Shown here: positions 7,675-40,116 of the stretch, in pieces
Layout: every line of letters starts with the position of its first letter
Position numbering within the stretch: position 1 is the stretch's first letter
Virus record (IMG/VR): IMGVR_UViG_3300005288_000008
Coordinates: 1 to 42,727 of that record
Length of the DNA: 42,727 nt
Origin: a virus
Reading direction: 5' to 3' (one strand)
Translations under genes and position numbers: made by a program
Notes under the pieces: model-generated
What the model saw: only the letters and a program-made list of their open reading frames with translations
The model's database searches: none
What the model was told of the DNA's origin: nothing

Positions 7675-7703
7675 ATAATCGACTAGGATAATCATTATGT
7701 CAA
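7675..7703 (-). promoter_or_regulatory. Promoter cassette P1: TTGACA-TAATGATTATCCTAGTC-GATTAT
   Basis: -35 at 7698-7703 and -10 at 7675-7680, 17-bp spacer. Member of the TTGACATA(G/A)T(T/G)ATTAT family. The TGA stop of 7700-8041 lies inside the -35. Confidence 0.6.
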
Positions 7704-8041
7704 GTCGGAACTTCCAATCCCCTGCGCTCCTGCATTTCTTCGGCGGTCACGAAATACAGCTCGCACCGCCCCTCGCTGAAATCTCCCAGCCTAAACGGCG
7801 CCAGGCCACTTGAATCCGTGGTCACGCAAAAGAAGTCAAACGGCCAGTTCAGCGCCTGGATATGCAGGCACCCTAGGCTCAGCATGAAGCCGTTATAGGT
7901 CACATTCCGCCAGCTCACATTGAACGACCAGAACTGCGAAACCTGATAAAAATTCAGCGTCAGTACGATCTCTTCGTCATCGACCAGCAGCACATGACGC
8001 TGACTCGGCTCATCGGTGATATTGATTATCTGAAACGCCAT
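7700..8041 (-). CDS. Tail/baseplate-associated protein (113 aa)
   Basis: ORF track. Follows the 258-aa tail protein downstream of the tape measure. Synteny only. Confidence 0.45.
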   Translation of the reverse strand: MAFQIINITDEPSQRHVLLVDDEEIVLTLNFYQVSQFWSFNVSWRNVTYNGFMLSLGCLHIQALNWPFDFFCVTTDSSGLAPFRLGDFSEGRCELYFVTAEEMQERRGLEVPT

Positions 8042-8044
8042 CCG

Positions 8045-8821
8045 TTATCTCCCGAGAACCGCAGTCAGCACGGATTTCTGTTTCTTGGCGCCAGCACCAT
8101 CGCCGGATTTCGGCGACTGAACGCCCTTGTCTTTCGTCCCCTGGGTCTGGCTCTTCACAGCGGGCGCTGGCTTCTTGTAGAAGCGACCCGCGTCCGTGTA
8201 GATCGTCTTGGCGATCCGGAATTTCTGGGCCGTCAACGAGAACGTCAGGGCCTTGCGCTGGTTGTCACGCGTGATCGTCACATCGTTGATCGCCATGCTT
8301 TCGTGATTGCGATACGGCATGGAGATGGTCGTGAGCTGCTTGCCGTAATGCAGCGACTCGATGAAGTCCACGAACTGTTCGCGAATCGGTTTCGACCCCG
8401 ATTTATTGCCGGTGAAGTCGCCAGGATTTTTACCAAGCGAGATCTGTTCGTTGATGCCCCTGCGACGATCTCCGGCGCTGTCCTCGACCTTGGCCGCTCG
8501 CTGATCTTGCGACGGCGTGCGCTTCGGCAGGAAGGAATTCGTCAGCCCCACGGTTGGCAGACGCTTGTCGGACTTGCTCGGCGTCGGCGCATTGAAGAAC
8601 ACGTCGGCGACATCACCGTTGATGGTGATCTTGATCGGCGCATTGATGAGGTGGTCGCCGATATAGCTGCCGTCCTCGACTACCGATGTCGGTGATGCCG
8701 TTGAGTATTGCGTCTGATCGCTTACCCTGGCGAACAGGGTAAAGCCGCCGATGCCCACCTCTTCCAGCGAGGATGAGGACAGCGCCTGATCTTCACCGAC
8801 CTTCAGTTCCTGAATGCTCAT
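8045..8821 (-). CDS. Tail protein downstream of tape measure (258 aa)
   Basis: ORF track. 4-nt overlap with the tape measure stop. Synteny only. Confidence 0.45.
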   Translation of the reverse strand: MSIQELKVGEDQALSSSSLEEVGIGGFTLFARVSDQTQYSTASPTSVVEDGSYIGDHLINAPIKITINGDVADVFFNAPTPSKSDKRLPTVGLTNSFLPKRTPSQDQRAAKVEDSAGDRRRGINEQISLGKNPGDFTGNKSGSKPIREQFVDFIESLHYGKQLTTISMPYRNHESMAINDVTITRDNQRKALTFSLTAQKFRIAKTIYTDAGRFYKKPAPAVKSQTQGTKDKGVQSPKSGDGAGAKKQKSVLTAVLGR

Positions 8822-10419
8822 CGGCCACCTCGGTTAACCTGGGTCTTGGCGGTCTTCAATTGATCCTGCAGGGCGTTATCCACGGCGGCACCTGCGGCCT
8901 TCGGATCGCTGCTCGCAATGTCGATCTTGATGTCCTGCTTGATCTGACTGTTGTTGACTGAGCTGTTGCCGGCCGGCGTCATCGCTACGGCATCGTTCGG
9001 ACTCATGCCTGGCACATCCCAAGCATCTTGCCCGCTGCCGCTTGGGAGTGGCGCTGCGTTGGCTGCCATCTCTGTGGCCGGAGATCCGCCCGAGCTGATC
9101 AAATCAACCGCCCAGTCTGGCAAGATCGAGGTAGCCGCAGATTTGATGCCGCCAAGGATCTGGCTAAACGCCGTACCGATGAAATCGAACAGGCCGAGGA
9201 AAATGTTCTTGATGCCCTCGCCGACAGAGTTGAATGCCGCCAGCAATGCGTCAAGCGCGCCCGCCCAGTTACCCTTGAACAGCTCAATGACGGCATCAAA
9301 CAGATGCCCGAACGCATCAAAGAAAGGCTGGGCGAAAGTGAGCAGCGCCGCAAACATCGCTTTGAATGCGTCAACGATACCCTGAAGCACCGGCACGATG
9401 TCCCAGCCGAAGAACTCCATGAAGAAGTCTGCGATTACGGACTGGCCGCCATCGAGAGCGGTCAGAAGATCATCAACGATAAGCAGCAGGGCAACGATAG
9501 CTGCGGTGATCAGTACGACAGGAGACAGCAGGAAAGCCATAACCGTGGCGAAACCGCCGGTTGCAAGCTGGGCGACAACGAAGGCGCCAGCCAATGCCAG
9601 GGCAATCGGCGTCATGCGCACAAAGAAACCGGCAGTTGCTTGGATGACCTCGCCGAGCCACTGAAGCCCGCCCTTGATCAGGTCTTGGTTGGCGGTCAGG
9701 AATTCAACAAAGCCATCCGTGATCTTCTGTGTGGCCGGCGCTAGGTTGATTGCGATCTGCTGGCTGAGTGCCGCCGCCGCGAACTTAGCAACACCAAGCG
9801 AATCCTGGAAGTCTGCCGCTGCTTGGGCCTGCTCAGTGGTGACAATGCCAAGCTGGCGAGCAGTGCCTATCAGGCCGTCAATCTCTTCAGTGGTGGCATT
9901 TAGGAGTTGCAGCGTCGACGGATCCAGGCCGAGCGCCGCGATAATTGATTTCTGCGTACTCTTGTCAGTGCCGAGTCTCGCAAATGATTCGCGTAACTCG
10001 TTGAACAGAACGTCCGCCGTCTTCACATTGCCGCTGGCATCCTTGACGCTGATGCCCAGCTCTTCGAAAGCCTTCTTGCCCTTGCCAAGACCGCGAGCAG
10101 CGTCACCCGAGACCTTCGAAAGTCCAGCAAGGCTTGCGCTCATTGCCTCGGCGCTCGAACCAGAAAGCTCGGCGGCAAAGCCAAGCTCCTGAATGCTCTC
10201 GACCGTGATGCCAGTTTCGGCGCTCATGTCAGTCAGGGCGTCGGCGGCCTGAGTGTTCGCCGAGACGAACGCGACAAGTCCGCCAGCGGCGCCAATCACA
10301 GCAGCGCCGAAGCCGGTCAGCAGCGCCAGGGACAGTTTCAGGTTTTCGTTGAACTCACGTTGCGGCGCGAGATCTCCGACGAAGCTGAACTTGCTGACCA
10401 ACTCATTTACGACCGCCAT
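8818..10419 (-). CDS. Tail tape measure protein (533 aa from ATG 10419)
   Basis: ORF track frame. Preferred start MAVVNELVSKF has GAGGA 5 nt upstream. Long Ala/Gly/Leu-rich helical protein with central hydrophobic segments, between chaperone and baseplate genes. Confidence 0.8.
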   Translation of the reverse strand: MAVVNELVSKFSFVGDLAPQREFNENLKLSLALLTGFGAAVIGAAGGLVAFVSANTQAADALTDMSAETGITVESIQELGFAAELSGSSAEAMSASLAGLSKVSGDAARGLGKGKKAFEELGISVKDASGNVKTADVLFNELRESFARLGTDKSTQKSIIAALGLDPSTLQLLNATTEEIDGLIGTARQLGIVTTEQAQAAADFQDSLGVAKFAAAALSQQIAINLAPATQKITDGFVEFLTANQDLIKGGLQWLGEVIQATAGFFVRMTPIALALAGAFVVAQLATGGFATVMAFLLSPVVLITAAIVALLLIVDDLLTALDGGQSVIADFFMEFFGWDIVPVLQGIVDAFKAMFAALLTFAQPFFDAFGHLFDAVIELFKGNWAGALDALLAAFNSVGEGIKNIFLGLFDFIGTAFSQILGGIKSAATSILPDWAVDLISSGGSPATEMAANAAPLPSGSGQDAWDVPGMSPNDAVAMTPAGNSSVNNSQIKQDIKIDIASSDPKAAGAAVDNALQDQLKTAKTQVNRGGR

Positions 10420-10651
10420 CGGGATTCCTCGATTTATACGCCTGGATCTCGGCGGTGATTTGTTCGAACTCGATAGCGTCCAAAAACTCTGGTGTATCCA
10501 TCGCCTCGATTTCGGCCAGGCTGCCATACCCGGCCTTCACCAATGCGAACATCGCCATGCGCTCGCCGCTTACATTGGTTTCTCGGATGAGGTCTTCGCT
10601 GGCTCCCCTACTTGGGATGCTGAGGCGATACCTGCGGCGCGAGTAAAAGGG
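10403..10651 (-). CDS. -1 frame extension ORF of the tail assembly chaperone (G/GT- or E/E'-like)
   Basis: The -1 frame stays open across the chaperone 3' end and stops at 10403-10405. It encodes ...MAMFALVKAGYGSLAEIEAMDTPEFLDAIEFEQITAEIQAYKSRNPDGGRK. An in-frame slippery heptamer C CCU UUU lies at 10645-10651. An alternative, U UUG GGG, lies at 10663-10669. Confidence 0.4.
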   Translation of the reverse strand, partial: PFYSRRRYRLSIPSRGASEDLIRETNVSGERMAMFALVKAGYGSLAEIEAMDTPEFLDAIEFEQITAEIQAYKSRNPDGGRK

Positions 10652-11432: not shown

Positions 11433-12935
11433 TTACAGGTTGAAATTGATGATGATGTCGACCGAGTGAATCGCACCGGCATTCTTCACGGCGCCCTGAA
11501 GCACTGGAGATTTGCGCGCCGCACGATCCGCTTGAGGCTGATCACGCAACAGGCCAGCCAGCCAGTAGAAGCCGAACTGCTCGATGTTGCGATTGAACGT
11601 GTCGATGTTGCCGAAACTGTCAGGGCTAGACCAAGTGCCTGGGCCGAAGACGTTGGCGCGAACGAAGCCACGCGAGGTCTTCTCGGCGGTCGCCACCAGC
11701 TTGTTCACGTCACGGGTGATCTGCGCCAGCTTGGTGCCGGTAGCCTTCAGGACGTTGAACATGTCGGTCTGAATGGCGTCGATGAAAGCGATCAGGTTGT
11801 ACACGTTATCGACGAAATCATTGGCGCCGCTGGCCAGCACGACTGGCGTGTCTTTGATAGTCGTGTAAACGTCCAGGCCCACGCGCTTGGCCGAGTCGAT
11901 CTCGGTCTGTTCGTAAGATTCAGCAGGGACGCTCAATTCCTTGAGGTTCATCGTAATCGCCGAGTTCTCGGCGTTGAAGTTCACGGTGTGCGTGCGCGCC
12001 ATGTAGCTGGCTGCATACAGGCGGTTGCCGGACTTGCTGTACAGGCAGCGGAAGCTTGACTGACTGGCCAGCTTGACCGCCCAAACAGGGTTGGATGCGC
12101 CAACAGTAAAATAGCTGGAGCCGGTGAAGACGTTGTAGATGATGGTCTGATTGGCGCCAGCCCATGCGGCCAGAGTCGGAACCTCGGCGTCCAGTACCAG
12201 ATCCGTGAAGACCGCGCCCTTGATATTCACCAGAGCCTTCAGTGCGCTGATCGATTGCACCTTGGTTTCGATTGGTAGAACGACCGATGCAGCGCCTTGG
12301 GTCAGCGTGCCGCCAGTGCCATTGGACATGGTCAGCAAGCCGCCAATGAAGGTGCCGGCGGGGCCGGGAGTCATGTAAGTCAGCAAGCTGGTTGCGCCGG
12401 TAGTCGAACTGGTCACGGTCAGATAACCGTTATTGTGCGAGACCACCGCGCCAGTGATGGCGGTATCGAGGATCGCGGCAACCGCATCCAGGGTAGTGGC
12501 CGCGCTGAAGTCCAGAGATGCAGCAACAACCGGAGTCGCGTCAACGGTGATGTTGAAGCTGCCGTCGGTGATGGTCTGAAGCTGGGATATAAGCGTGGAC
12601 TCGACGAGCTGAGTGCTTTTCAGGGTCGCAGCGGTAGCCGGAACAGTCTCAGCAACGGCACGATGCAGGCCGATAATCAGCTCGCCTCCGAAGTTGATCG
12701 GGTTTGGCTTGGTGTCGAAGATCGTCTGCGCGTATTGAGTGGTGATCGAGGCCGTACCAAAGTCGGCCTCTACCGCAGCGGCATCACGATAGCTGCGGAA
12801 ACGCTCCGCGCTGGTGATCACGCCGGGTTCGCTGGTCAGTACCGCGACGGTGTTCATGTTGTCGCGTGCGGCTTGACGTCCTTCGGGAATCAGCGCGACG
12901 TTGACCACGTTCGTGATGCTTGCGTTATTGCTCAT
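11433..12935 (-). CDS. Contractile tail sheath protein (500 aa, DUF3383-like)
   Basis: ORF track. Large protein directly upstream of the tube gene, the canonical sheath-tube-chaperone-TMP order. Confidence 0.7.
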   Translation of the reverse strand: MSNNASITNVVNVALIPEGRQAARDNMNTVAVLTSEPGVITSAERFRSYRDAAAVEADFGTASITTQYAQTIFDTKPNPINFGGELIIGLHRAVAETVPATAATLKSTQLVESTLISQLQTITDGSFNITVDATPVVAASLDFSAATTLDAVAAILDTAITGAVVSHNNGYLTVTSSTTGATSLLTYMTPGPAGTFIGGLLTMSNGTGGTLTQGAASVVLPIETKVQSISALKALVNIKGAVFTDLVLDAEVPTLAAWAGANQTIIYNVFTGSSYFTVGASNPVWAVKLASQSSFRCLYSKSGNRLYAASYMARTHTVNFNAENSAITMNLKELSVPAESYEQTEIDSAKRVGLDVYTTIKDTPVVLASGANDFVDNVYNLIAFIDAIQTDMFNVLKATGTKLAQITRDVNKLVATAEKTSRGFVRANVFGPGTWSSPDSFGNIDTFNRNIEQFGFYWLAGLLRDQPQADRAARKSPVLQGAVKNAGAIHSVDIIINFNL

Positions 12936-28749: not shown

Positions 28750-28788
28750 CAGCCGTGTAGAAACAAATTCCCCGACAGGAGCTAAACC

Positions 28789-29787: not shown

Positions 29788-29791
29788 CACC

Positions 29792-29938: not shown

Positions 29939-30153
29939 ACAAATCACACGATATCTCGGAAGGTATGCAGCATTGTGGCGGTGAAAACTGCCAAGAGGAT
30001 CTACGTCCCGAAGAACAATGTCCGTTTGATGAGGAAAAAGAAATAGAGTCTTGCCACTTGGCTTTTTCTAATGATCGGAACATGAAAGCTTCCGATTGGA
30101 CTGTTTTCAGAGCTGCTTGGCTAGCTTGTGCAAGATTGAGGGTTCAACCATGA
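29935..30153 (+). CDS. Hypothetical Cys-containing protein (72 aa from GTG 29935)
   Basis: ORF-track frame 29920-30153. GTG 29935 overlaps the upstream TGA. Confidence 0.4.
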   Translation: MNKSHDISEGMQHCGGENCQEDLRPEEQCPFDEEKEIESCHLAFSNDRNMKASDWTVFRAAWLACARLRVQP

Positions 30154-30893: not shown

Positions 30894-30979
30894 CCACCTA
30901 CGCCTACTGCCTTATCGCCCTGGCCTGCCACGGCCTTCCGCAACTTATTCAATGGGGTATTGAAAAATGGATGATGTGA
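30890..30979 (+). CDS. Possible micro-ORF (29 aa, MTTYAYCLIALACHGLPQLIQWGIEKWMM)
   Basis: Manual translation. ATGA overlap with the upstream gene. Confidence 0.25.
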   Translation: MTTYAYCLIALACHGLPQLIQWGIEKWMM

Positions 30980-31347
30980 AGCGCTGCAAGCACGACAGAA
31001 ACTTTTGCATGGAGTGTCATGCGCCTGCTGCTGGAGCAATTAGCACGGGACACCCTGATGCCGGGCGTGTCTATGCCGCGGCTTACGAGGCAGTAAAGAA
31101 AGACTACGACGCCCAACGCCTGCGCGTCGATACGGCTGAGGCTGAGCTGAAGCGTGAGCGAGAATTTAATGCAGTCAATGTGTCGGAAGCAGAACGCATG
31201 CTTGCCGCCGCCGAGCAGCGCATTGCGGACCATGAAAGCATGCTGCGCCACTTCGCGAGCTGTGCCGACCTGTTTCAGGTTGGAACTATGGCAATGAATT
31301 ACGTCGCTGCCCTCAACCCCAAACCCGAGGCAGGAAGTCATGAGTGA
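30967..31347 (+). CDS. Hypothetical protein (126 aa), N-terminal Cys/His cluster and coiled-coil
   Basis: ORF track. CKHDRNFCMECH, then a helical Ala/Glu-rich segment. Confidence 0.5.
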   Translation: MDDVKRCKHDRNFCMECHAPAAGAISTGHPDAGRVYAAAYEAVKKDYDAQRLRVDTAEAELKREREFNAVNVSEAERMLAAAEQRIADHESMLRHFASCADLFQVGTMAMNYVAALNPKPEAGSHE

Positions 31348-31573
31348 CCTTCTCAACATGGAGTTGATCAATTCCCTTCCTCAGCCGCTTTTCGGAAAGG
31401 GGTACGGCAGGGACCATTGGTGGCCAATAGTGGATATCGACGTTGAAAGCGGACTTTGCCGCATAGACGTTTGCGGGTTGTTGGAAGTCAGGCAGTTTAG
31501 CGATTTTCGGTACATCCGTGACGATACGCAAACCCTACACGAACCTGACCGCTTCTATATGGATGAGGACTGA
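31340..31573 (+). CDS. Hypothetical protein (77 aa)
   Basis: ORF track. Overlaps the upstream gene by 8 nt. Confidence 0.5.
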   Translation: MSDLLNMELINSLPQPLFGKGYGRDHWWPIVDIDVESGLCRIDVCGLLEVRQFSDFRYIRDDTQTLHEPDRFYMDED

Positions 31574-31575
31574 CC

Positions 31576-32010
31576 ATGACCAATAACCCAACGATTGACG
31601 GCGTGTCGCGGGCGACAATTGAGCAGGCTTTACTTGATGCTCAAAGAGTGCGCTTCCCCACCGATAAACATATTTGCAATCTGCGCGCCTTGATAGATGC
31701 CCCTGTCGTCGAGCGCCAGCCGGTTGCCTGCGGACAATGCGGATCGACTTCGGCGGACATCTGCAACGGTAATGGCTGCGGATATCTCGAATCCGGCAAC
31801 GGTGAACCCGAAATCGCCGCCCTGCAATCCACCATCGCCCAGCTACAGGCGCGCGTGCAGGAGCTGGAGATTGGACTTGGCGGAATGCTGTTCGCTTTTG
31901 ATGACGGCGTAGGAAGAGGCTGGTCAGCAAAAATCCTCGACTACGCCCGTAAGCTGACTCCGGCTGTCGAGTTCGACGCCACCGCTGCGCTGAATGAGGT
32001 GAAGCCGTGA
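31576..32010 (+). CDS. Hypothetical protein (144 aa), Cys cluster + coiled-coil
   Basis: ORF track. CGQCGSTSADICNGNGCGY, then IAALQSTIAQLQARVQELE. Confidence 0.55.
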   Translation: MTNNPTIDGVSRATIEQALLDAQRVRFPTDKHICNLRALIDAPVVERQPVACGQCGSTSADICNGNGCGYLESGNGEPEIAALQSTIAQLQARVQELEIGLGGMLFAFDDGVGRGWSAKILDYARKLTPAVEFDATAALNEVKP

Positions 32011-32189
32011 GCCATCCAGCCGCTTACTACGAAGGAAAAGAACAGCGATCCAAAGGCCTGAGCCAGAAGGGAAACCCATACCGCTCAGTGACTAATCAAT
32101 GGTCATGGTGGCAGGCCGGCTACAACGACAAAGACATTCAGATGTCGAAGGAAAACAATTATGTACCTACCAACACAAGAGCATATTGA
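32007..32189 (+). CDS. Rmf/CrpP-like small protein (60 aa)
   Basis: ORF track. AAYYEGKEQRSKGLSQKGNPYRSVTNQWSWWQAGYND resembles the G..A...G.....(C/N)PY......W..GW pattern of the ribosome modulation factor/CrpP family. Confidence 0.45.
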   Translation: MSHPAAYYEGKEQRSKGLSQKGNPYRSVTNQWSWWQAGYNDKDIQMSKENNYVPTNTRAY

Positions 32190-32430
32190 TCTTTGGAATC
32201 GCGGCTGCTCATGTCACTTCATCGCGAACTTGGTCGGTGTGCATCGGATGACTATCTGTCGTGGCTTCAAGAAACTCGGCTTCGATTTGCTTAACAGGCC
32301 GAGGCCAAATATTGATGAGATCATCACCGAAGTTCGTCGACTAAAGTCGCTGGGCTGGTCACGAAACAAGATATCTGAACGAGTCGGATACTCGAACCGG
32401 CAGATAGGCAGATGGACAAACAACAAATGA
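32161..32430 (+). CDS. Small HTH-type DNA-binding protein (89 aa, two HTH-like segments)
   Basis: ORF track. IANLVGVHRMTICRGFKKLG and SRNKISERVGYSNRQIGRW. Last gene before the plus-strand terminator. Confidence 0.5.
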   Translation: MYLPTQEHIDLWNRGCSCHFIANLVGVHRMTICRGFKKLGFDLLNRPRPNIDEIITEVRRLKSLGWSRNKISERVGYSNRQIGRWTNNK

Positions 32431-32434
32431 ACTT

Positions 32435-32459
32435 AGCCCCTTAACTGGGGCTTTCTTTT
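32435..32459 (+). terminator. Intrinsic terminator AGCCCC-TTAACT-GGGGCT-TTCTTTTG
   Basis: Read directly, 5 nt after the stop at 32430. Confidence 0.65.
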
Positions 32460-32480
32460 GCCTTCAGGAAATAACGCCCA

Positions 32481-32506
32481 ATAAAAAGCCCATCCGAAGA
32501 TGGGCT
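32481..32506 (-). terminator. Intrinsic terminator for the minus-strand island (AGCCCATC-TTCG-GATGGGCT-TTTTAT)
   Basis: Read on the minus strand, about 45 nt after the primase stop (32549). Confidence 0.65.
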
Positions 32507-32548
32507 GCCTGGCGGGGCTTTGACAGGAGCTTGCCGAGGGTCTTCAGG

Positions 32549-33406
32549 TTATGCGCAGCACTTGCGCCTGTCAACCTTGGCATATGGATCCAGGGGAAGC
32601 GCAACGATTGCATATCCATCATCAACGAACTGATCGGCCTCGGACGGGTCGCAGCCGATGTGCGTAAAGCGGTCTTTGCAGTTTGCTAGCATCCAGTTGA
32701 AATTTTCGTACTCCATGGCGCACAGGACGCGAATGCGACCGGACTGCGACCACCACAGGCGCCATGCGTGCGCGTAATCGATGCAGATAATTGTTTTTCC
32801 GTCGTGATCGCCTTCTGGCTCAAGGATGGCGGTCGATCCGAACGATGGATTTCCGGCTGCGTAGGTGATGCCCTTGCTGCTGATCGCCGCGAGGTTGGTT
32901 GTCTCGCCGATGTTGTTGATCAGCGGGACGATGAGCGAGCCTTTCAGGTTCAGGCACTGGACATTGGAAGCGGTGTTGTTTTGCATGAGGTATTTGTGTT
33001 GTTCGGTTGGTTGGCAGGTCGAGAGGATGGTTGCGGATTTTTCGCGGTCTTCGGCGTGGCCTGGGAGATCGCAGCGCGTTGCGCGAATTACAGGCGCTCT
33101 CTTTACCGATGAAGACTCAAGGGTTATCTCGCCAAGGATTGATTCGACGGCACCGCGAAAGCTTAGGCCTGGATTCATGGCTTGAACGAAGCCGATGGCA
33201 TCGCCTCCAGCGCCGCAACCTTGGCAATAGTAGAAATCCTTCGACTCGACGACGCCGAAGCTTGGCGTCTTTTCTTTGTGGAATGGGCAGAGCGCTACCC
33301 AGTTCTTGCCGGCCCTCTTCAGATCCGGCAGATAGCCACGAATCACGCCGACGATGTCCTCGTTGGCGCGGTCGACGATGTGTTGCGGGACGAGCTGGCC
33401 GCTCAC
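32549..33406 (-). CDS. DnaG-type DNA primase (CHC2 zinc finger + catalytic core, 285 aa)
   Basis: ORF track. CPFHKEKTPSFGVVESKDFYYCQGCGAGGDAIGFV is the canonical zf-CHC2 primase motif. Confidence 0.8.
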   Translation of the reverse strand: MSGQLVPQHIVDRANEDIVGVIRGYLPDLKRAGKNWVALCPFHKEKTPSFGVVESKDFYYCQGCGAGGDAIGFVQAMNPGLSFRGAVESILGEITLESSSVKRAPVIRATRCDLPGHAEDREKSATILSTCQPTEQHKYLMQNNTASNVQCLNLKGSLIVPLINNIGETTNLAAISSKGITYAAGNPSFGSTAILEPEGDHDGKTIICIDYAHAWRLWWSQSGRIRVLCAMEYENFNWMLANCKDRFTHIGCDPSEADQFVDDGYAIVALPLDPYAKVDRRKCCA

Positions 33407-33840
33407 TTCTGAAGCTCCAGAAACGTCGGCAGCTTGATGGCCGGAATACGACCGCGAGACTTGTAGGTATGGTAATCGCTGACGGTGATGAATGCAGCAT
33501 CACACAGCGCCTTGACGCTACCAAACTGTTTGGCCAGCTTGACGAGTAGTTTTGCATCCTGCGTTGTCGGCACCGGCTTGATTCCAGGATTAGGACCTGG
33601 AAACTCCTGATCCCATTCAGCCTCAGAAAGGTCGGGCCGGAACTCTTCTTTCATGCGGCCAGTGACTTCGGCCAATCGGTAAGCAGCCCGCCGAGACATG
33701 TAGCCACGCTGAACCCACATCGCAACCGCAGTCGGCTTGAAGTTTGTAGCGCGAGCCAGCTCAGCAGCGGAGCCGTACTCAGCAATCAGGCTTGCCAGCA
33801 CGCGGCCCCGATCATCTTGCTGGAGGTCAATTGGAGGCAT
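33403..33840 (-). CDS. Cro/YdaS-like HTH transcriptional regulator with duplicated domain (145 aa)
   Basis: ORF track. GSAAELARATNFKPTAVAMWVQRGYMSRRAAYRLAEVTGRMKEEFRPDL fits the Cro/YdaS-type HTH. A second, related segment reads FGSVKALCDAAFITVSDYHTYKSRGRIPA. Confidence 0.65.
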   Translation of the reverse strand: MPPIDLQQDDRGRVLASLIAEYGSAAELARATNFKPTAVAMWVQRGYMSRRAAYRLAEVTGRMKEEFRPDLSEAEWDQEFPGPNPGIKPVPTTQDAKLLVKLAKQFGSVKALCDAAFITVSDYHTYKSRGRIPAIKLPTFLELQK

Positions 33841-33854
33841 AATTCAATTCCGTG

Positions 33855-33884
33855 TTGACATAGTGATTATCTTTGCCGGATGAT
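33855..33884 (+). promoter_or_regulatory. Promoter cassette P5: TTGACA-TAGTGATTATCTTTGCCG-GATGAT (18-bp spacer)
   Basis: -35 at 33855-33860 and -10 at 33879-33884. Its -10 overlaps the -10 of the opposing regulator promoter. Confidence 0.55.
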
Positions 33885-33908
33885 AACGCCAGATGGTAAT
33901 TATTGCAA
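33880..33908 (-). promoter_or_regulatory. Sigma70-like promoter TTGCAA-N17-TATCAT for the regulator/primase island
   Basis: -35 at 33903-33908 and -10 at 33880-33885 on the minus strand. The predicted leader contains the reverse complement of the P5 cassette. Confidence 0.55.
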
Positions 33909-33921
33909 TGAGGATATAGAG

Positions 33922-34188
33922 ATGGGCAAATGGGCCAGCGTCAAAGATCGTGAACTGCTGGAACTGGCGGCGAAAGTTGCGGAGCTTGGTTTTGTTCCAA
34001 GTCCTGATAAAGGGTACGGTAGTATTCGGGGTGTAATGCACAAGCCATGGAACCCGCTTCACGACGATGGCGATGCTTTCCGCCTGGCACACAAGCTTGG
34101 CATCCAAATCAAATGGTTCGGCAACATTGAAACCGTCCGCCGCGCAATCGTAAGCGCCGCCGCCGAAATCGGCCGTAAAATGCCATGA
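33922..34188 (+). CDS. Hypothetical protein (88 aa from ATG 33922)
   Basis: ORF-track frame 33880-34188. ATG 33922 has GAGGA upstream and lies downstream of the predicted P5 transcript start. Motif WNPLHDDGDAFRLAHKLGI. Confidence 0.5.
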   Translation: MGKWASVKDRELLELAAKVAELGFVPSPDKGYGSIRGVMHKPWNPLHDDGDAFRLAHKLGIQIKWFGNIETVRRAIVSAAAEIGRKMP

Positions 34189-34556
34189 GCACTCACTGCC
34201 GTTGCCGAAAATGCCGAGCGCGCCGAACACTGCCAAAGCATCCTGGCGATTACCGAATGCGCAAAAAATGTCCGCGCTGTAAGAAGCCGCATTTTTCGGA
34301 AAGCAATGCATGCCAGACAAATAAATGCGGATTCATTGGCATGATGACTACGCCGAAATGCAGGTCGTGCGGTAGTCGAGAATACTCGGTTGATCAGTAC
34401 CGAACTGATGGAAAGGACACACGCCCTACCTGCTCAAGCAAACAGTGCTGCCCTTATCCGCACCGAATGGGATCGAACAACCTGTTGCCGGCGCACGGCG
34501 ACCTGAACTGCTTATTCAATGCTGATGGTAGCTATCGCGATTTCTTCGCGTCTTGA
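34185..34556 (+). CDS. Cys-rich multi-zinc-ribbon protein (123 aa)
   Basis: ORF track. CRCRKC...CPRC...CQTNKC...CRSC...CSSKQCC. Confidence 0.55.
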   Translation: MSTHCRCRKCRARRTLPKHPGDYRMRKKCPRCKKPHFSESNACQTNKCGFIGMMTTPKCRSCGSREYSVDQYRTDGKDTRPTCSSKQCCPYPHRMGSNNLLPAHGDLNCLFNADGSYRDFFAS

Positions 34557-34569
34557 TTGCTATCGAAGC

Positions 34570-34598
34570 TTGATATAGTTATTATTGTTTTCTACTGA
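34570..34598 (+). promoter_or_regulatory. Promoter cassette P6: TTGATA-TAGTTATTATTGTTTTC-TACTGA
   Basis: -35 at 34570-34575 and -10 at 34593-34598. The GACAGGAGC leader follows immediately. Confidence 0.5.
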
Positions 34599-34612
34599 CA
34601 GGAGCATCACCA

Positions 34613-35515
34613 ATGGCCTTCACTCTTCACAACATCGCTACCGATAAAGAAAACGCCACGGCCAAGCGTGCCGACTCGATCAAGGCACAGCTCAGCAAAA
34701 TCAAAATCGTCAACGGTTTCAATGAGCGCGACTTCCAACGCGAAGACGTGCGCCTGCATATCGCATCAATCGTTTCCTCGCTGATCGCTGGCGAGCCAAT
34801 CCCCGCGCTGGTTGTCTGGACGAATCCAGAAACCGGCGACATCGAGCTGGTTGATGGCGAATGCCGCTACTGGGCCTACACCGATTTCGCTGCGGAGTAT
34901 CCGGACAAGTTCGACGGCTATGTCAGCGTGGTTCCGTACCAAGGCACTCCAGCTCAGCGCAAGGCCATGGTTGCCAAGAGCAACAGCCAATTACCGCTTG
35001 ATCCAGTCCAGCGTGGCCGCGTTTATCTGTCGCTGCGTGATGAGCATGGCATGAGTCGCCAGGATATTGCTGCTGAGATGGGCAAGTCGTTGGCGCATGT
35101 TGATCAGCATTTGCTGTTGGCCAGTGGCGGTGAAGAGGTTCATGCAGCCGTTGGCGCTGGCGTTATTTCCGCAACCGAAGCCGTCAAGCTGGTGCGCGAT
35201 CATGGCGCCGATGCACCTGCTGAACTGGAGCGCCGCAAAGAGGCTGCCAAGGAAATCGGCAAGGACAAGGTGACCGCGAAGGTTGCAGCGCCGAAAGCGC
35301 CAAGTCGGCCGAAAGTGGATATGGTGGTTTCGGCTGCCGTCGTGCTTGTAAAACAATTGAGCGCGTCGACAATTGAGCTTTGCGATGATCCCGAGCCTAC
35401 TTTTGTAAACGTCAGTTCGCACGCCCTGGCTGACCTGATCATGGCCGTTCGCGAAATGCAGCAGGCCGGCAAACCGCTGGATGCTGATAAGCAAATGGAA
35501 TTGATCGGGGAATAA
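34613..35515 (+). CDS. ParB/Srx N-terminal domain protein with HTH (300 aa)
   Basis: ORF track. ...IELVDGECRYWAY... is a ParB-box-like motif. MSRQDIAAEMGKSLAHVDQHL is an HTH. Confidence 0.65.
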   Translation: MAFTLHNIATDKENATAKRADSIKAQLSKIKIVNGFNERDFQREDVRLHIASIVSSLIAGEPIPALVVWTNPETGDIELVDGECRYWAYTDFAAEYPDKFDGYVSVVPYQGTPAQRKAMVAKSNSQLPLDPVQRGRVYLSLRDEHGMSRQDIAAEMGKSLAHVDQHLLLASGGEEVHAAVGAGVISATEAVKLVRDHGADAPAELERRKEAAKEIGKDKVTAKVAAPKAPSRPKVDMVVSAAVVLVKQLSASTIELCDDPEPTFVNVSSHALADLIMAVREMQQAGKPLDADKQMELIGE

Positions 35516-35520
35516 TCAAT

Positions 35521-37545
35521 ATGGCGCTCCACCTGCTGGAACACCAACTCCCCGTAATCGCCGCCATGCAAAAACACTTCCGCAGCCGCGAGACTGCGAA
35601 GTGGGGCGAGCGCGATATTCATCCACCAATCGTCTGCAATGCTTCGGTATCCAGCGGCAAAAGTATCATGATCGCCGCGCTGGCAATGGCGGTCAGAAAG
35701 GCTGCCATCAATTCACAAAAGCCGCGCTCGGTCTTCGTGCTGGTAATCCAGCGCCAAGGCGAGCTATGTATGCAAAACAGTGAGGCGGCCTGGGCATTCA
35801 ACGATGAATCCAAGCTGCTGAATAACTCGTTGTTCTCGGCCAGTTGCGGCAAGGTCAAGTCCACGCATTTCCAGGTTGTTTACGCCACCGAGGGAACGCT
35901 GTCACGTGCCCTCGGGTTCGGCGTCAAAGCCAAGGATGGCGAAGAACCTGAAGCGCCAAAGCCTCAATACAGGTTCTCGCCCTACACCGTCGAAGAACTC
36001 GCCAAGACGCCTGAGCAGCGCGCCCTGCTGAAGAAGTTTCACCCTGACCTGATCATGTGGGATGAGGGCCACCAGATCCCATACGACAACCCTGACAGCA
36101 TGGCAGTGAAGATCCTCAACCACTTCTACGACTGCAAGCCGGCAATGCGCCTGGCATGCTTCAGCGGCTCATGTTTTCGCGGCACCGACTCCATCGTCGG
36201 CGATACGCCGCAGCACCTCTGGAAGAAGTTCGCCAGCATCAAGCCGGACGATACCGATTATCCAGAAGGCGGCGTAGGCGACGGCGTCATCACCACTGAA
36301 TTCATGATCGAGCAAGGCTGGGTTGTTCCGCCGACATTTGGCTATCCGGATGACACGGATAAGCAGTACGACTTCAGTCATTTGAACCCGAATGGCTGGG
36401 AGTACGACGAAGCCGAGATGGATGCCGTTGTCAGCGATCACCAGAAGCTGCTGGCGGTATGCTCTGACGTGATCGAGAAGGCGGCCAGCCGAAAGGGCGT
36501 CCTGATCTTCGCGGCTACCCAGCGGCACGCCAGGCAGATTGCCGCCGCCATGAAAGACCTCGGCGTTGATCCTGACACCATTGGCGTGATTACCGAGAAG
36601 ACCAAGGACAAGGATCGGCGCCGGATTCTGGATCAGGCGAAAACCGGAGTCATCAAGTACACGATCAACGTCGCCGTTCTGACTACCGGGGTGAACGTGC
36701 CATGGTGGGACACGCTGGTATTCATGCGGCCAATCGGTTCGCTGGTGCTGCTGATCCAGGCTATCGGTCGCGTGCTGCGCCTGCTGATCCTTGATGGCGA
36801 AGTGCCGATGTTTGAGCGATCCAACCTGTTCGGCTTGACTGCGGCTGATCGACTTGAGCTGATTGCAGCCAGCAGCAAGCCTGATGCCCTGGTAATGGAT
36901 TACGCCGACGTGATGAACACGCTCGGGCATCTTTACGACAACCAGATCCTTGAGCAAGCCGAGCTGGAGAAGGCGAAGAAGGAAAAAAAGGATCTGATCG
37001 AGTGTCCGAAGTGCTCAACTATGAACAGCCCGTCAGCCCGCCGCTGTATTATGCGCGACGATTACGGCAATCGCTGCGAACACTTCTGGCACTTCCGCCT
37101 ATGCCCTGGATGCGGCACTCAGAACGATCAGGTTGCCCGCGAGTGCCGATCCTGCAAGCGCATGCTGATCGACCCAAACGCGGCGCTGAACAATAAGCAT
37201 TATGTAGATGGCGAGTCTATCCCGGTTCGCTCGATGAAAGCCGGTCACGGCTCAGACGGCAAGCTCTGGTTTCGTTACGAGCTGTCGACGGGAGACACGC
37301 CGATGGAATTGTTCTATCCACATGCCGGCCAGAACAAAAAGGTCAACAACATCATCTGGGGCAAGTTCGTTGATCAGTTACCGATTGATCAGCGGTCTCG
37401 TCTCAGACTCAAGGCGATGAAGGCTGAAACGGTGATGGAAAATATTGATTTGATTCCGGTGCCTGCTGAGTTGTCGGCGCGGAAGAAGGGTTCGAAATGG
37501 ACGGTAGGAAGAAGGAAATATCAGGAAGTGGAGGTGGCGGTATGA
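35521..37545 (+). CDS. Superfamily 2 DNA helicase (DEAD/DEAH-like) with C-terminal double zinc ribbon (674 aa)
   Basis: ORF track. Walker A NASVSSGKS, motif II MWDEGHQ, motif VI QAIGRVLR. C-terminal CPKC...RRC...CPGC...CRSC. Confidence 0.8.
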   Translation: MALHLLEHQLPVIAAMQKHFRSRETAKWGERDIHPPIVCNASVSSGKSIMIAALAMAVRKAAINSQKPRSVFVLVIQRQGELCMQNSEAAWAFNDESKLLNNSLFSASCGKVKSTHFQVVYATEGTLSRALGFGVKAKDGEEPEAPKPQYRFSPYTVEELAKTPEQRALLKKFHPDLIMWDEGHQIPYDNPDSMAVKILNHFYDCKPAMRLACFSGSCFRGTDSIVGDTPQHLWKKFASIKPDDTDYPEGGVGDGVITTEFMIEQGWVVPPTFGYPDDTDKQYDFSHLNPNGWEYDEAEMDAVVSDHQKLLAVCSDVIEKAASRKGVLIFAATQRHARQIAAAMKDLGVDPDTIGVITEKTKDKDRRRILDQAKTGVIKYTINVAVLTTGVNVPWWDTLVFMRPIGSLVLLIQAIGRVLRLLILDGEVPMFERSNLFGLTAADRLELIAASSKPDALVMDYADVMNTLGHLYDNQILEQAELEKAKKEKKDLIECPKCSTMNSPSARRCIMRDDYGNRCEHFWHFRLCPGCGTQNDQVARECRSCKRMLIDPNAALNNKHYVDGESIPVRSMKAGHGSDGKLWFRYELSTGDTPMELFYPHAGQNKKVNNIIWGKFVDQLPIDQRSRLRLKAMKAETVMENIDLIPVPAELSARKKGSKWTVGRRKYQEVEVAV

Positions 37546-37835
37546 CTGTTTACGTGGACGATCTTGAGTCTTACGGGTGGGTAATTCGCGGCAACAAAAC
37601 CACGAGCTGCCATATGTTTACTGACAGCCTGGATCTTTCTGAGCTTCATGCGATTGGCAAAACGGTCGGTATGCAGATCAGATGGTTTCAGGATAAGCGA
37701 TCCGCTCCACATTACGACTTAGTACCGTCGAAACGAGAGGCGGCTATCGCTGCTGGCGCGGTTCCGGTTGACCGAGAACAGGCCGTCCGCATCTGGAGAA
37801 TTCGTCGTTATCTGGTGAAAAGGTCTCTACGATGA
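37542..37835 (+). CDS. DUF4031 domain protein (97 aa from ATG 37542)
   Basis: ORF-track frame 37497-37835. ATG overlaps the helicase stop. MTVYVDDL...SCHMFTDS..ELHAIGKTVGMQIRWFQDKRSAPHYDLVPSKREAAIAAGA matches the DUF4031 pattern. Confidence 0.6.
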   Translation: MTVYVDDLESYGWVIRGNKTTSCHMFTDSLDLSELHAIGKTVGMQIRWFQDKRSAPHYDLVPSKREAAIAAGAVPVDREQAVRIWRIRRYLVKRSLR

Positions 37836-38233
37836 TCCGTATCTACGACAGCGGCTATCGGGGTGATTGCCGAACAGAGCGCTGCGAGCAAATCGACTCG
37901 ATCAGTTGGCTGTCGTTCAATTACCCTGAGCGCTTTCCATTAATTTTCCACTGCCCTGGAGAGACCAAGGCAAGTCCTCAGTACATGCAGATGCGCGCCA
38001 AGGAGGGTGTCAAGGCTGGCCCTCCCGACATTATCGACCTCGATCAGTGGCCAGGTCTGTTTGAGCTGAAGCGATTGGATCGCACGAAGTCCAAGGTCAG
38101 CAAAGAGCAGAGAGACTTCTTGATTGCGGGCTCCGAACGAGGCCACTTCACCGCCATCTGCTACGGCTTCGAACAATTCAAGCTGGCCTACGCCGATTAT
38201 CTCGCCTTCATCGCCTCAAAGCAGTTGACATAG
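37832..38233 (+). CDS. VRR-NUC domain nuclease (133 aa)
   Basis: ORF track. GVKAGPPDIIDL...GLFELKR...SKEQRDFL fits the VRR-NUC PD-(D/E)XK core. Confidence 0.7.
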   Translation: MIRIYDSGYRGDCRTERCEQIDSISWLSFNYPERFPLIFHCPGETKASPQYMQMRAKEGVKAGPPDIIDLDQWPGLFELKRLDRTKSKVSKEQRDFLIAGSERGHFTAICYGFEQFKLAYADYLAFIASKQLT

Positions 38234-38253
38234 TTATTATCTTGATCCACTAT
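38225..38253 (+). promoter_or_regulatory. Promoter cassette P7: TTGACA-TAGTTATTATCTTGATC-CACTAT
   Basis: -35 at 38225-38230 and -10 at 38248-38253. The last codons and TAG stop of the VRR-NUC gene are the TTG-ACA-TAG of the cassette. Confidence 0.6.
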
Positions 38254-38292
38254 CTCAGCACCTAAAGCAGCATCCATGACAGGAGCAACAAA

Positions 38293-38580
38293 ATGGCTAT
38301 TCAGAAAGTAACGTTGTATGTCCATTCGCTTGTGCGTAGTTGGAAACCGGAGCCAGAGATTTTTGTCGCGGGCCAGAATATGGGCTCAATCGATGATTAC
38401 ACCTTGATCTGCACTCGCCAGGTGGATATCGACATTCCGGAATTCGATGCTACTGGCTTGCTTATTGAGAAACTGGAAGCTGAGGTGCAGAAAGAGCGCG
38501 CCGAATCCCAATCCCGCGTCAACATCCTGCTCGAGCGCATCAGCAAGCTGAAGGCGATTACGCATGAGGTGCCGGCATGA
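38293..38580 (+). CDS. Hypothetical protein (95 aa, C-terminal coiled-coil)
   Basis: ORF track. GACAGGAGC lies 6 nt upstream of the ATG. Confidence 0.55.
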   Translation: MAIQKVTLYVHSLVRSWKPEPEIFVAGQNMGSIDDYTLICTRQVDIDIPEFDATGLLIEKLEAEVQKERAESQSRVNILLERISKLKAITHEVPA

Positions 38581-39389
38581 TCTACGAAAACCTCCCAGCC
38601 GAAGAATACTTCGCCATCGAAGCGGCCAGCAACTCAGGCCTGAAGCTGATTCGCCGCAGCCCTGCGCACTTCAAGTACCGCGAGCCGGGAACGGGTGACA
38701 CTCGCGCCAAACAGATCGGCTCGGCAATCCACATGGCGCTGCTGGAGCCGGAGCTGTTCGCCAAGACCTACCACGTTGCCGAAGCCGATGATCGTGTAAG
38801 CGCATACTACAAAGGCTTGGCGAAAGACCTTGGCGGCGCGGTAGTTCTGACTCGACCAGAAAACCGCCGCATCATCGGTATGCAGGACGCCGCGTATCGT
38901 AATCAGCGCTTCGCCGGCTACATGGCTAAGGCTGGTCGCAATGAGTTGTCAGTCGTGTCCGTCGATCCCGTCACTGGCGTCAATGTCAAATGCCGCTTCG
39001 ACCGCAAGGGCGACTCTGCATGGGCGCTGGATTTGAAGAAGTGCCAGGATGCTCGCGGCAATGAGTTCGCCCGCGCCATCACGAACTACGGCTACTACAT
39101 GCAGATCGCTTTCTACCAGATGGTCTGGCAGTGGGAAACCGGCGAGAAGTGCGACGACTTTCCGCTGGCGGCATTGGAAGAAGATTCGCCGCACGGCTTC
39201 ATCCTTCACGACCTTGACGAGATCGCTCTGGAGCTTGGTCGCCGCCATGCTCGCGAAGCACTCGACACATACGCACGCTGCCTGGACTCCGGCGTGTGGC
39301 CTGGCTACGAAGAAGAATCCGAATTCACCAGTGTGACATCGTGGGCAGCCAATGAACTGCTGTCAGATGAAGCCTTTGGAGGTCTTTAA
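38577..39389 (+). CDS. PD-(D/E)XK family exonuclease (270 aa)
   Basis: ORF track. ...IGSAIHMALLEPELF... and ...RFDRKGDSAWALDLKKCQD... give the D...(D/E)xK arrangement of the Cas4/RecB/YqaJ-like exonuclease fold. Confidence 0.65.
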   Translation: MIYENLPAEEYFAIEAASNSGLKLIRRSPAHFKYREPGTGDTRAKQIGSAIHMALLEPELFAKTYHVAEADDRVSAYYKGLAKDLGGAVVLTRPENRRIIGMQDAAYRNQRFAGYMAKAGRNELSVVSVDPVTGVNVKCRFDRKGDSAWALDLKKCQDARGNEFARAITNYGYYMQIAFYQMVWQWETGEKCDDFPLAALEEDSPHGFILHDLDEIALELGRRHAREALDTYARCLDSGVWPGYEEESEFTSVTSWAANELLSDEAFGGL

Positions 39390-40045
39390 TGACTATTTCC
39401 CGCGAAGAATTCATGGGCACAACCATGGCCAAGAGCGACCAGATCAACGCGGCAGACCTGTTGGGTGGCCCGCTGGTCTGCCAGATAACTGATATCCAGA
39501 TGACCGGGTCGACAGATCAGCCAATCAGCATTTTCGTTGACTCTCATCCGCAGCCATGGAAGCCGAGCAAGACATCTCGCCGCGTGCTGGCGGCGTGCTG
39601 GTCAGATGTCGAACCATCTGAATGGGTTGGTCGTTACGTCGTGCTGTACAACGACCCGACGGTCATGTGGGCCGGCAAGGCTGAAGGCGGTATTCGGACC
39701 AGCCACATGAGCCACATCGACGGCAAGAAAACGATCATGACCAACGCGACTCGCGGCAAGAAGTCCGCGCAGACGGTTGAGCCGTATTATCCGGACAGCT
39801 CTCAGGCTCCAGCGGCGGCGCCAATCTTCTGGCCCGACGAAGCATTCGCTAAGCGCCTGGCAGCAGCTCAACCAAAGATCGATTCCGGCGAGCTGACCGC
39901 CGAAGCCTTCATCGCCACGTTAGAGAAGAAGGCGCCGATGACTGCTGGTCAGAAGGCGCGGGTTAAGCCGACTCCTGAGCCGGTTGCTGATGATCTGGAT
40001 CCGCCGCAGATGGATGATGGCGATCCATTCGGCATGGATGAGTAA
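39389..40045 (+). CDS. Hypothetical protein coupled to the exonuclease (218 aa)
   Basis: ORF track. ATG overlaps the exonuclease TAA. No motif recognised. Acidic C-terminal tail DDLDPPQMDDGDPFGMDE. Confidence 0.5.
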   Translation: MTISREEFMGTTMAKSDQINAADLLGGPLVCQITDIQMTGSTDQPISIFVDSHPQPWKPSKTSRRVLAACWSDVEPSEWVGRYVVLYNDPTVMWAGKAEGGIRTSHMSHIDGKKTIMTNATRGKKSAQTVEPYYPDSSQAPAAAPIFWPDEAFAKRLAAAQPKIDSGELTAEAFIATLEKKAPMTAGQKARVKPTPEPVADDLDPPQMDDGDPFGMDE

Positions 40046-40052
40046 CCCAACC

Positions 40053-40077
40053 AGCCCGCCTTCGTGCGGGCTTTTTG
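40053..40077 (+). terminator. Intrinsic terminator AGCCCGC-CTTCGT-GCGGGCT-TTTTG
   Basis: Read directly, 8 nt after the stop at 40045 and 11 nt before promoter cassette P8. Confidence 0.7.
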
Positions 40078-40087
40078 TTATCTGGTG

Positions 40088-40116
40088 TTGACATAGTTAT
40101 TATGCAGATCTATAGT
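40088..40116 (+). promoter_or_regulatory. Promoter cassette P8: TTGACA-TAGTTATTATGCAGATC-TATAGT
   Basis: -35 at 40088-40093 and -10 at 40111-40116, 17-bp spacer. The GACAGGAGC leader follows. Confidence 0.7.

Follow-up and report, generated by a model that had tools for sequence, protein, structure and literature searches.

Units of promoter, gene and terminator inserted in late operons (morons) are known from lambdoid and other phages. Further known systems are the KorB/KorA global regulon of plasmid RK2 and the dispersed ParB-type sites of phage N15. In T4-type phages, exchangeable orphan genes are bordered by sigma70 promoters known as promoter-early stem-loops (PeSLs; PMC2839356, PMC4122927). 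Phage P1 has 22 dispersed, asymmetric operators for C1 (17 bp, ATTGCTCTAATAAATTT; PMC8546580), and the cluster A mycobacteriophages L5 and TipsytheTRex contain dispersed repressor sites and stoperators that are bound by a monomer with two DNA-binding domains (PMC9283540). Here, we describe a 16-bp element, TTGACATAGTTATTAT, that is present in eight copies in the IMG/VR virus record IMGVR_UViG_3300005288_000008. The analyzed window is the whole metagenomic contig of 42,727 bp, which has the layout of a phage genome. An earlier note on this DNA had described the copies as promoter cassettes under the control of one factor. Judged from the sequence, the eight copies are a clade-specific family of predicted promoters for the host sigma70 RNA polymerase. 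With some reservation, we consider it probable that this family has two classes, an operator-like spacer and exchangeable gene units downstream.

A search for TTGACATAGTTATTAT with up to three mismatches recovered all eight family copies at the positions and on the strands listed in the earlier note, compared with 0.16 matches in dinucleotide shuffles of the window. Four copies are exact (18501-, 28721+, 38225+ and 40088+). One mismatch is present in 33855+ and 34570+, two are present in 7703- and three in 25050-. The 8-mer TTGACATA is found seven times (0.75 expected) and ATAGTTATTAT, with at most one mismatch, eight times (0.10 expected). Plain TTGACA is not enriched in the window (22 occurrences, 21.9 expected). 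Thus, the enrichment resides in the extension past the -35 hexamer, which itself is an exact TTGACA in seven of the eight copies and TTGATA in the remaining one. All eight copies have the same orientation as the genes downstream, with the start codon 27–52 nt away. In four copies the upstream gene ends inside the motif, as had been pointed out before, with TGA at 7700–7702, 18498–18500 and 28722–28724 and TAG at 38231–38233. This fusion is partly inherent in the motif, which holds stop codons in two of three frames (TGA at positions 2–4, TAG at positions 7–9), so that any gene reading into it terminates there. Stop-codon fusion is a consequence of tight gene packing and not a separate signal. 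Two additional matches with three mismatches, at 1797 and 6739, were not assigned to the family: they are identical 17-mers in structural genes, are antisense and have unrelated flanks. These 17-mers (ATTGCCAAGGTTATTAT, 1796–1812 and 6738–6754, plus strand) belong to two different structural genes, agree with 13 of the 16 motif positions and reflect either chance or a shared peptide.

Seven copies in the window combine TTGACA with a spacer of 17–18 bp and a -10 hexamer of the form nAnnnT (class I). Such a hexamer (A as second base, T as sixth), located 16–18 bp after TTGACA, is present in all 43 class I site clusters of close relatives, mostly as TAnnnT and mostly at 17 bp, and at 49 of the 50 TTGACATA sites of distant lineages, which were collected without other constraint. 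The background is 0.146 at random positions and 1 of 15 at TTGACA sites outside the family. This pattern points to -35/-10 promoters in which the -35 element is perfect and a weak -10 element is tolerated. Co-orientation, -35/-10 geometry and start-codon distance all support the description of the copies as promoter cassettes. The -10 hexamers proposed previously are all found at the spacings given, but TACTGA of the 34570 copy does not show the combination of A2 and T6 that the other seven have. PeSLs have an AT-rich tract upstream of the -35 element; here, A/T-rich tracts are located at about -40 to -55 in about five of the eight copies, with no conserved column there. The contiguous 16-bp motif had also raised the possibility of a promoter for a phage-encoded RNA polymerase or sigma factor. 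This candidate was dropped, as no such gene was found among the scanned early open reading frames (ORFs) and the -10 hexamer is at a fixed distance of 17 bp. Likewise, TATTAT as a general -10 element with its own upstream -35 element was rejected, since this applies to only three of the eight copies.

The start codon of class I units is 41–52 nt after the motif and is preceded by the Shine-Dalgarno sequence GACAGGAGCAA. Exact or with one mismatch, GACAGGAGCAA occurs almost only at these promoter-proximal first genes. Transcription from class I promoters would start about 35 nt after the beginning of the motif and about 6–8 nt past the -10 hexamer, with predicted starts near 28756, 33891, 38260 and 40123 (plus strand) and near 7668, 18466 and 25015 (minus strand), and the resulting leader of 20–40 nt would end in the strong conserved Shine-Dalgarno sequence.

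The eight copies do not form a single class, contrary to what had been assumed. The 34570 copy and its orthologues have T at position 5, as do sites before an exonuclease or ATPase gene in other relatives (class II). None of the ten class II clusters has a downstream -10 hexamer. In two relatives (L055 and L097) the Shine-Dalgarno sequence begins only 6 nt past the motif, which leaves no space for one, and in the window the distance between the 34570 element and the start codon of the ParB-like gene is only 27 nt. Due to the C-to-T change at position 5 the motif reads as the extended -10 element TGATATAGT. Variation in class II is confined to TGn(T/C)ATAnT, with the forms TGATATAGT, TGATATAAT, TGGTATATT and TGGCATAAT. 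The 34570-type sites are predicted extended -10 promoters of the type TGnTATAGT, from which transcription would start at about the motif end (near 34586–34592 in the window). In agreement with known extended -10 sigma70 promoters (TGnTATAAT), the sequence of class II copies fits TGnTATA(G/A)T, and a -35/-10 pair is missing. Unlike these, they keep the whole 16-mer including TATTAT, a half that an extended -10 promoter does not need. One and the same 16-mer is predicted to serve two registers, either as -35 element plus spacer or as extended -10 element. Both registers retain the 3' half, TATTAT, and polymerase contacts alone do not account for that.

Relatives were obtained by an exact-motif scan of IMG/VR, which yielded 118 stretches; about 30 of these align to the window at 70–85% identity. 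Distant lineages were added by a second scan with the regulator protein (see below) as query and by four contig look-ups. At orthologous sites in about 30 contigs the 16-mer is nearly invariant, and flanks, leaders, -10 hexamers and the first downstream gene vary. In the close lineage, positions 7–16 have 1.91 bits per position, compared with 0.57 for the -10 element and 0.46 in the remaining spacer positions, figures that are partly biased by the site-collection procedure. Conservation ends sharply at 16 bp without tailing off. The spacer is conserved beyond what sigma70 needs, as the earlier note had argued, and this is also the case in related phages. Certain deviations are stable and site-specific: G at position 11 in 33855-type sites of all relatives, T at position 5 in 34570-type sites and TTTGGT in 25050-type sites, the latter being the same in all orthologues. 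Since these variants persist at orthologous sites with 70–85% identity, each site is maintained by selection and is not overwritten by its neighbours. The pattern of the distant lineages is TTGACATA-N3-(A/G)TTAT, with the lineage-typical central triplets GTT, ATG, ATC and ACG. No paper containing the 16-mer was found in the literature.

Motif positions 6–16 read ATA(A/G)-N3-TTAT. Distant lineages and the 7703 copy have the palindrome in perfect form, and the main version of the window deviates from it by one base (ATAG). Exact ATAA-N3-TTAT is present eight times in the window (0.26 expected), compared with zero or one occurrence at the other spacings from 0 to 8. In 508 kb of relatives, 81 exact copies were found, compared with 0–10 at other spacings. 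Seven of the eight exact palindromes in the window (all but 7688) are outside promoter spacers, and five are no more than about 30 nt away from a gene boundary. Of 47 TTGACATA promoters in distant lineages, 42 contain the palindrome with at most one mismatch; it begins at motif position 6 or else covers the -10 element (positions 19–20). The control value is 2%. With its one strict spacing, its occurrence inside and outside promoters and its two alternative core-promoter positions, the palindrome behaves like a protein-binding site. These data are the strongest support for the operator idea, which is plausible in a corrected register. The previously proposed dyad CATA-N5-TATG has the trailing G in only three of the eight copies, and the register ATA(G/A)-N3-TTAT is better supported. 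For the putative operator, ATAACCGTTAT was named as probe sequence beside TTGACATAGTTATTAT. Several intragenic palindromes are retained at orthologous positions in two relatives (L018 and L056). The palindrome at 718–728 is located in a short island conserved in relatives, and on the minus strand GATAAT comes 6 nt after it; the genes at 391–654 may have their promoter here.

The family resembles the operators of P1 and L5 type in that one asymmetric site of 13–17 bp is dispersed in many copies, which include a -35-like hexamer in part or whole and point in the direction of transcription. Furthermore, a protein with two helix-turn-helix (HTH) domains is encoded here too, as in the mycobacteriophages. 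Those phages are temperate, however, and the reader is the immunity repressor. Here, neither an integrase nor a CI-type repressor was seen among the ORFs scanned, and just one cultured phage is related in its whole layout, the distant Pseudomonas phage Amjad_SA (one 1.2-kb match at 74.6%), which is described as lytic in a paper that does not discuss its promoters (PMC12968170). In addition, nearly every copy is a complete predicted promoter and not a bare roadblock. As nothing points to a temperate lifestyle and the operator is a putative one, the cassettes are not classed with the immunity-operator systems.

Ends of high-scoring segment pairs fall within five early-arm cassettes 39 times, compared with 5.8 expected from length (about 6.7-fold), which is an upper estimate because such ends are expected near gene boundaries anyway and the expectation is derived from length. 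Most of the clustering is seen where the motif and the Shine-Dalgarno sequence end. Some homology islands consist of just promoter, leader and Shine-Dalgarno sequence (L071, 28695–28785; L022, 33844–33925; L101, 38222–38288). The first downstream gene is hypervariable, with at least ten unrelated genes behind the 40088-type promoter among relatives. One gene is found behind this promoter in L043 and L108, and its homologue in L065 is behind the 38225-type promoter, with the joint at the Shine-Dalgarno block. In L056, a unit of promoter and methyltransferase separates portal and head genes; the window lacks such a unit at this place. The cassettes are located at junctions of variable gene blocks, as had been suggested. 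Islands of 40–75 bp with 82–100% identity to relatives are also present at the gene junctions 29285–29343, 29873–29946, 30890–30955, 31306–31345 and 31564–31612. The genes between them cannot be aligned, and the islands resemble mosaic boundaries in the P28721 operon. Variable early-arm cargo of distant relatives includes a CsrA homologue (L119, 12323–12589; L120, 12397–12663) and, in L120, also a Lar-like restriction-alleviation gene.

PeSLs and the cassettes described here are both repeated sigma70-consensus promoters in variable regions beside small orphan genes. In both, the repeats mark where homology between related phages begins and ends, and this implies that cassettes are exchanged through recombination of the copies. 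The analogy to mobile cassettes of T4-type phages that had been drawn is therefore apt in the mode of working, but it fails for the stem-loop: the defining adjacent terminator hairpin is present only at the 40088 copy. Apart from this region (40053–40116), the window has no PeSL-like composite; two other hairpins, at 34536 and 28695, are weak, and in four copies the motif is fused to the upstream stop codon instead. Unlike in PeSLs, the conserved part comprises the -35 element and 10 bp of the spacer plus a separate Shine-Dalgarno block, and the genome is of a Pseudomonas-type, myovirus-like kind of about 43 kb. Because the stem-loop accompanies one copy only, the cassettes are outside the PeSL family as defined. 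They extend the PeSL idea beyond T4-type phages and open no new category.

In the preferred reading, each copy would head a short unit with a freely exchangeable first gene. The ATA(G/A)-N3-TTAT sequence in the invariant 10 bp after the -35 element would be the site for a dimeric or two-domain DNA-binding protein. Bound between -30 and -20, this protein would shut off or tune the whole promoter set together. Candidate readers are the C-terminal HTH domain of gp33403-33840, the ParB/KorB-like protein and gp32161-32430. Relatives would swap promoter-proximal genes at short homologies, namely the 16-mer and the Shine-Dalgarno block. Several observations weigh against this reading. About 25% of the TTGACATA promoters in distant lineages lack the ATTAT block, which is thus not essential for promoter function. 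In the lineage of the window the palindrome of the promoters consistently deviates by one base (ATAG), and the exact copies are located elsewhere, three of them inside genes. The overlapping promoter-like hexamers CATAGT and TATTAT in the motif could explain part of the conservation without an extra factor. In the relatives L137–L139 the N-terminal HTH domain of gp33403-33840 is replaced (different recognition helix; 55% identity overall) and the motif set is identical. Finally, the excess of alignment ends in the cassettes is to be read as an upper estimate, as stated above. A more far-reaching version, to which we give only tentative credence, has the 16-bp element contain, in both registers, a half-degenerate copy of the genome-wide palindromic operator ATAA-N3-TTAT. 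A ParB/KorB-like or two-domain Cro-like reader would control a plasmid-style global regulon, and the blocks of operator and promoter would double as recombination joints for accessory genes in a lytic, Pseudomonas-type clade.

Among the alternatives, an explanation by RNA polymerase alone survives best, although we regard it as rather less likely than the preferred reading. The overlapping core elements TTGACA, TGnCATAGT and TATTAT would be conserved for strength or for tandem starts, and no regulator would be needed. In every copy TGA(C/T)ATAGT fits an extended -10 element, on which class II appears to depend. TTGTTA or TTGCTA is located 17 bp upstream of TATTAT at 18501, 34570 and 40088, and the distant promoters without the ATTAT block retain TTGACATA plus a -10 element. 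However, such an upstream -35 element is restricted to these three of the eight copies, and we know of no sequence-specific polymerase contact for -29 to -20 of sigma70 promoters. The over-representation of ATAA-N3-TTAT outside promoters, at exactly one spacing, also argues against polymerase alone. So does the shift of the palindrome between two core-promoter positions in distant relatives, which is typical of operators.

If an operator is present, as the preferred reading assumes, three encoded proteins are candidate readers. The earlier note had named the 33403–33840 protein as the obvious one. Its description as a tandem-HTH protein proved correct, and the gene is on the minus strand: the AlphaFold model (pLDDT 88.5) comprises two independent Cro-like HTH domains, and the N-terminal domain matches Cro of Xfaso1, N15 and P22. 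That this protein is the single factor binding the spacer of all eight copies is doubtful in our view. The gene abuts P33855, and the predicted leftward transcript from its own promoter (33908–33880) would run across the P33855 16-mer, an autoregulatory layout. The C-terminal domain is near-invariant across the clade, like TTGACATA, and a monomeric two-domain repressor with an asymmetric site is known in mycobacteriophages (PMC9283540). The N-terminal domain, on the other hand, is variable. Because its exchange in L137–L139 leaves the motif set unchanged, it is not the motif reader; the C-terminal HTH domain could be. Moreover, the lineage-specific central triplets (GTT, ATG and ATC) do not follow the protein, and nothing favours it over the ParB/KorB-like protein and gp32161-32430, which are placed equally as candidates. 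L137–L139 are otherwise close relatives and have an unchanged C-terminal domain; their comparison with the window reveals domain-level mosaicism inside the 145-aa regulator.

The ParB/KorB-like protein (34613–35515) could act as a plasmid-style global regulator on ATAA-N3-TTAT and the near-palindromes of the promoters, as KorB does on RK2. Its HTH_ParB domain scores 26.5 bits (cut-off 22.6), the KorB domain is just below the Pfam threshold (21.7 compared with 22.3), and it matches the ParB-like PHROG at 2.5e-49. As in the KorB and ParB regulons, a ParB-family HTH protein is combined with a short palindrome that is repeated within and away from promoters, here dispersed over promoters, gene junctions and gene interiors. 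Additionally, a class II element precedes the gene in every relative. Nevertheless, we consider this assignment improbable. Known parS and OB sites are longer (13–16 bp) and unrelated in sequence to the palindrome. A ParA partner was not found in the window, and as a candidate site for the protein the GAGTCT repeat cluster at 25130–25415 is no less suitable.

A by-product of mobility is less probable still. The cassette would have been spread and homogenized by recombination among co-infecting relatives and would have no function past the -35 element. This would agree with the concentration of breakpoints in cassettes, with new-cargo cassettes at new places in relatives, such as the methyltransferase unit in L056, and with the exonuclease VIII-like recombination protein encoded by the phage. 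It does not agree with site-specific variants that are stable at orthologous positions or with conservation sharply bounded at 16 bp. Exact 16-mers in 88 unrelated viral contigs, which might have indicated spread, look like AT-rich chance matches (median GC 0.35). Binding of host Fur to the spacer, which would render the units iron-responsive, is very improbable: ATAAT-n-ATTAT is the Fur box core and 7703 matches at 15 of 19 positions (33855 and 38225 at 14), but the match is weak and uneven, the exact copies 18501 and 28721 reaching only 10 of 19, most window palindromes lacking the T-n-A centre and nine other window positions also reaching at least 13 of 19.

Eight predicted units with two promoter architectures and explicit start sites constitute a predicted transcription map for an unstudied clade of phages of about 43 kb, which is known from metagenomes and has Amjad_SA as a distant cultured relative. 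The 16-bp sequence probably couples regulation with gene exchange. Genes for host takeover or anti-defence are most obviously to be sought in the promoter-proximal slots, which are occupied by a different small gene in nearly every relative. Should the spacer be an operator, promoter strength could be split from regulation by a few base changes, which would be useful for the engineering of Pseudomonas phages. The coordinates of the promoters, their units and the candidate DNA-binding proteins are compiled below.

Table 1. Predicted promoters, associated units, palindromes and candidate DNA-binding proteins in the window.
Feature	Position	Strand	Details
Class I promoter P7703, TTGACATAATGATTAT	7688–7703	-	Spacer is a perfect palindrome, ATAATGATTAT; -10 GATTAT 7675–7680
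Genes of P7703	7300–7638, 6797–7303	-	Two accessory-type genes; 6797–7303 is a membrane-flanked-domain accessory gene
Class I promoter P18501, exact 16-mer	18486–18501	-	-10 GAGGAT 18473–18478; upstream collagen-like gene stops at TGA in TTGACA
Cargo of P18501, 47-aa ORF	18295–18438	-	Followed by intrinsic terminator AAAAGCCCGCCAAUGCGCGGGCUUUUU 18052–18078, before head protease gene
Variant class I promoter P25050, TTGACATAGTTTTGGT	25035–25050	-	Without ATTAT block; -10 GATTAT 25022–25027; heads tRNA unit
Cargo of P25050, tRNA-Asp	24840–24916	-	Leader of ~520 nt; strong terminator hairpin 24278–24313
Class I promoter P28721, exact 16-mer	28721–28736	+	-10 TAGCAT 28744–28749; upstream gene stops at TGA in TTGACA
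Gene start of P28721	28789 (start codon)	+	Shine-Dalgarno GACAGGAGCTA 28774–28784
Class I promoter P33855, TTGACATAGTGATTAT	33855–33884	+	18-bp spacer; -10 GATGAT 33879–33884; back to back with regulator operon promoter
Non-family promoter TTGCAA-17-TATCAT	33880–33908	-	Regulator-primase operon; its -10 overlaps the P33855 -10
Class II element, TTGATATAGTTATTAT	34570–34585	+	Extended -10 TGATATAGT 34571–34579; Shine-Dalgarno 34597–34607
Class I promoter, exact 16-mer	38225–38240	+	-10 CACTAT 38248–38253; upstream stop TAG in motif; Shine-Dalgarno GACAGGAGCAA 38278–38288
Composite of terminator and class I promoter	40053–40116	+	Hairpin/T-run 40053–40076; 16-mer 40088–40103; -10 TATAGT 40111–40116; Shine-Dalgarno 40130–40140
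Exact palindromes ATAA-N3-TTAT	718–728, 5652–5662, 7688, 12423–12433, 18508–18518, 20081–20091, 25719–25729, 37193–37203		Pattern search
Tandem-HTH protein, 145 aa	33403–33840	-	Two Cro-like HTH domains, flexible linker
ParB/KorB-like HTH protein, 300 aa	34613–35515	+	Candidate palindrome reader
HTH protein, 89 aa	32161–32430	+	HTH_23/HTH_3-like matches; third candidate reader

The structural arm occupies the minus strand from 25050 down to 1 and continues at 42636–41244 with holin and endolysin. Three copies are located in it ahead of accessory inserts or the tRNA unit, which agrees with the earlier description: P18501 precedes a 47-aa ORF, P25050 precedes tRNA-Asp and P7703 precedes accessory genes. 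The P18501 unit is a predicted complete unit of promoter, gene and terminator of the moron type. The P18501 and P25050 units are predicted to be autonomous inserts within the late structural arm; the terminator of the latter is just ahead of the small terminase gene (start at 24218). Like morons, both comprise promoter, cargo and intrinsic terminator in the structural arm, and relatives differ in units and positions (L056). Unlike morons, the units share one promoter sequence. No terminator was found for the P7703 unit, so that it does not qualify as a moron. The terminators at 24278–24313 and 18052–18078 are alike and strong (AAAAGCCCGC...GCGGGCUUUUUCAU). As both are inside the structural arm, late transcription must either read through (antitermination) or restart; neither a late promoter nor an antiterminator was identified in the window.

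Between head morphogenesis genes and the P18501 unit, a collagen-like protein of 306 aa with G-X-Y repeats and a signal-like N-terminus is encoded (18498–19418, minus strand). This region is replaced in L018 and L056. The segment of about 90 nt between P25050 and tRNA-Asp (24917–25018, minus strand) contains a T-arm-like sequence, GGTTCAAATCC, and a 10-bp closing stem (arms 24925–24937 and 25002–25014). It is not called as a tRNA by ARAGORN or Rfam and may be a decayed or unusual tRNA-like element. A tRNA is the sole hit in the Rfam scan of the window. Downstream of the tRNA, the non-coding region 24440–24645 is 95% identical to L056, compared with just 67% for the neighbouring terminase gene. 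No significant fold of a structured RNA was detected in the conserved leader 24430–24660 (z = 0.24). A direct repeat, GATGCGTGAT(A/T)TAG, is present on the minus strand at 24256–24269 and 24464–24477.

The early/replication arm occupies the plus strand (25538–41240). Its genes include a DUF3987 helicase, a methyltransferase, a primase, the ParB/KorB-like protein, an SNF2 helicase and an exonuclease VIII-like protein. The terminase is at most 65% identical to its best match, the terminase of Vibrio phage XM1, and no close cultured relatives were found. KLEP17-4, considered as a relative, turned out to be of an unrelated lambdoid type. A prophage and host search of 185,579 genomes with the ParB-like protein as query yielded no matches.

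An AT-richer region of 660 bp separates the divergent arms. It contains about 16 copies, in both orientations, of the repeats TTGAGTCT and AGACTCAA (GAGTCT core; 25130–25415), which form nested inverted repeats. This cluster is likely either a replication origin, with iterons for the neighbouring DUF3987 helicase gene, or a centromere-like site for the ParB-like protein. Five copies of the same repeat, ATTAGACTCA, are present in L121. A non-family promoter, TTGACT-17-TATACT (25474–25502, plus strand), is located ahead of a conserved 70-aa ORF (25538–25750) and the DUF3987 helicase gene, and it is flanked by direct repeats TCTCAAAACA(T/A)CTCAAA at 25433 and 25479.

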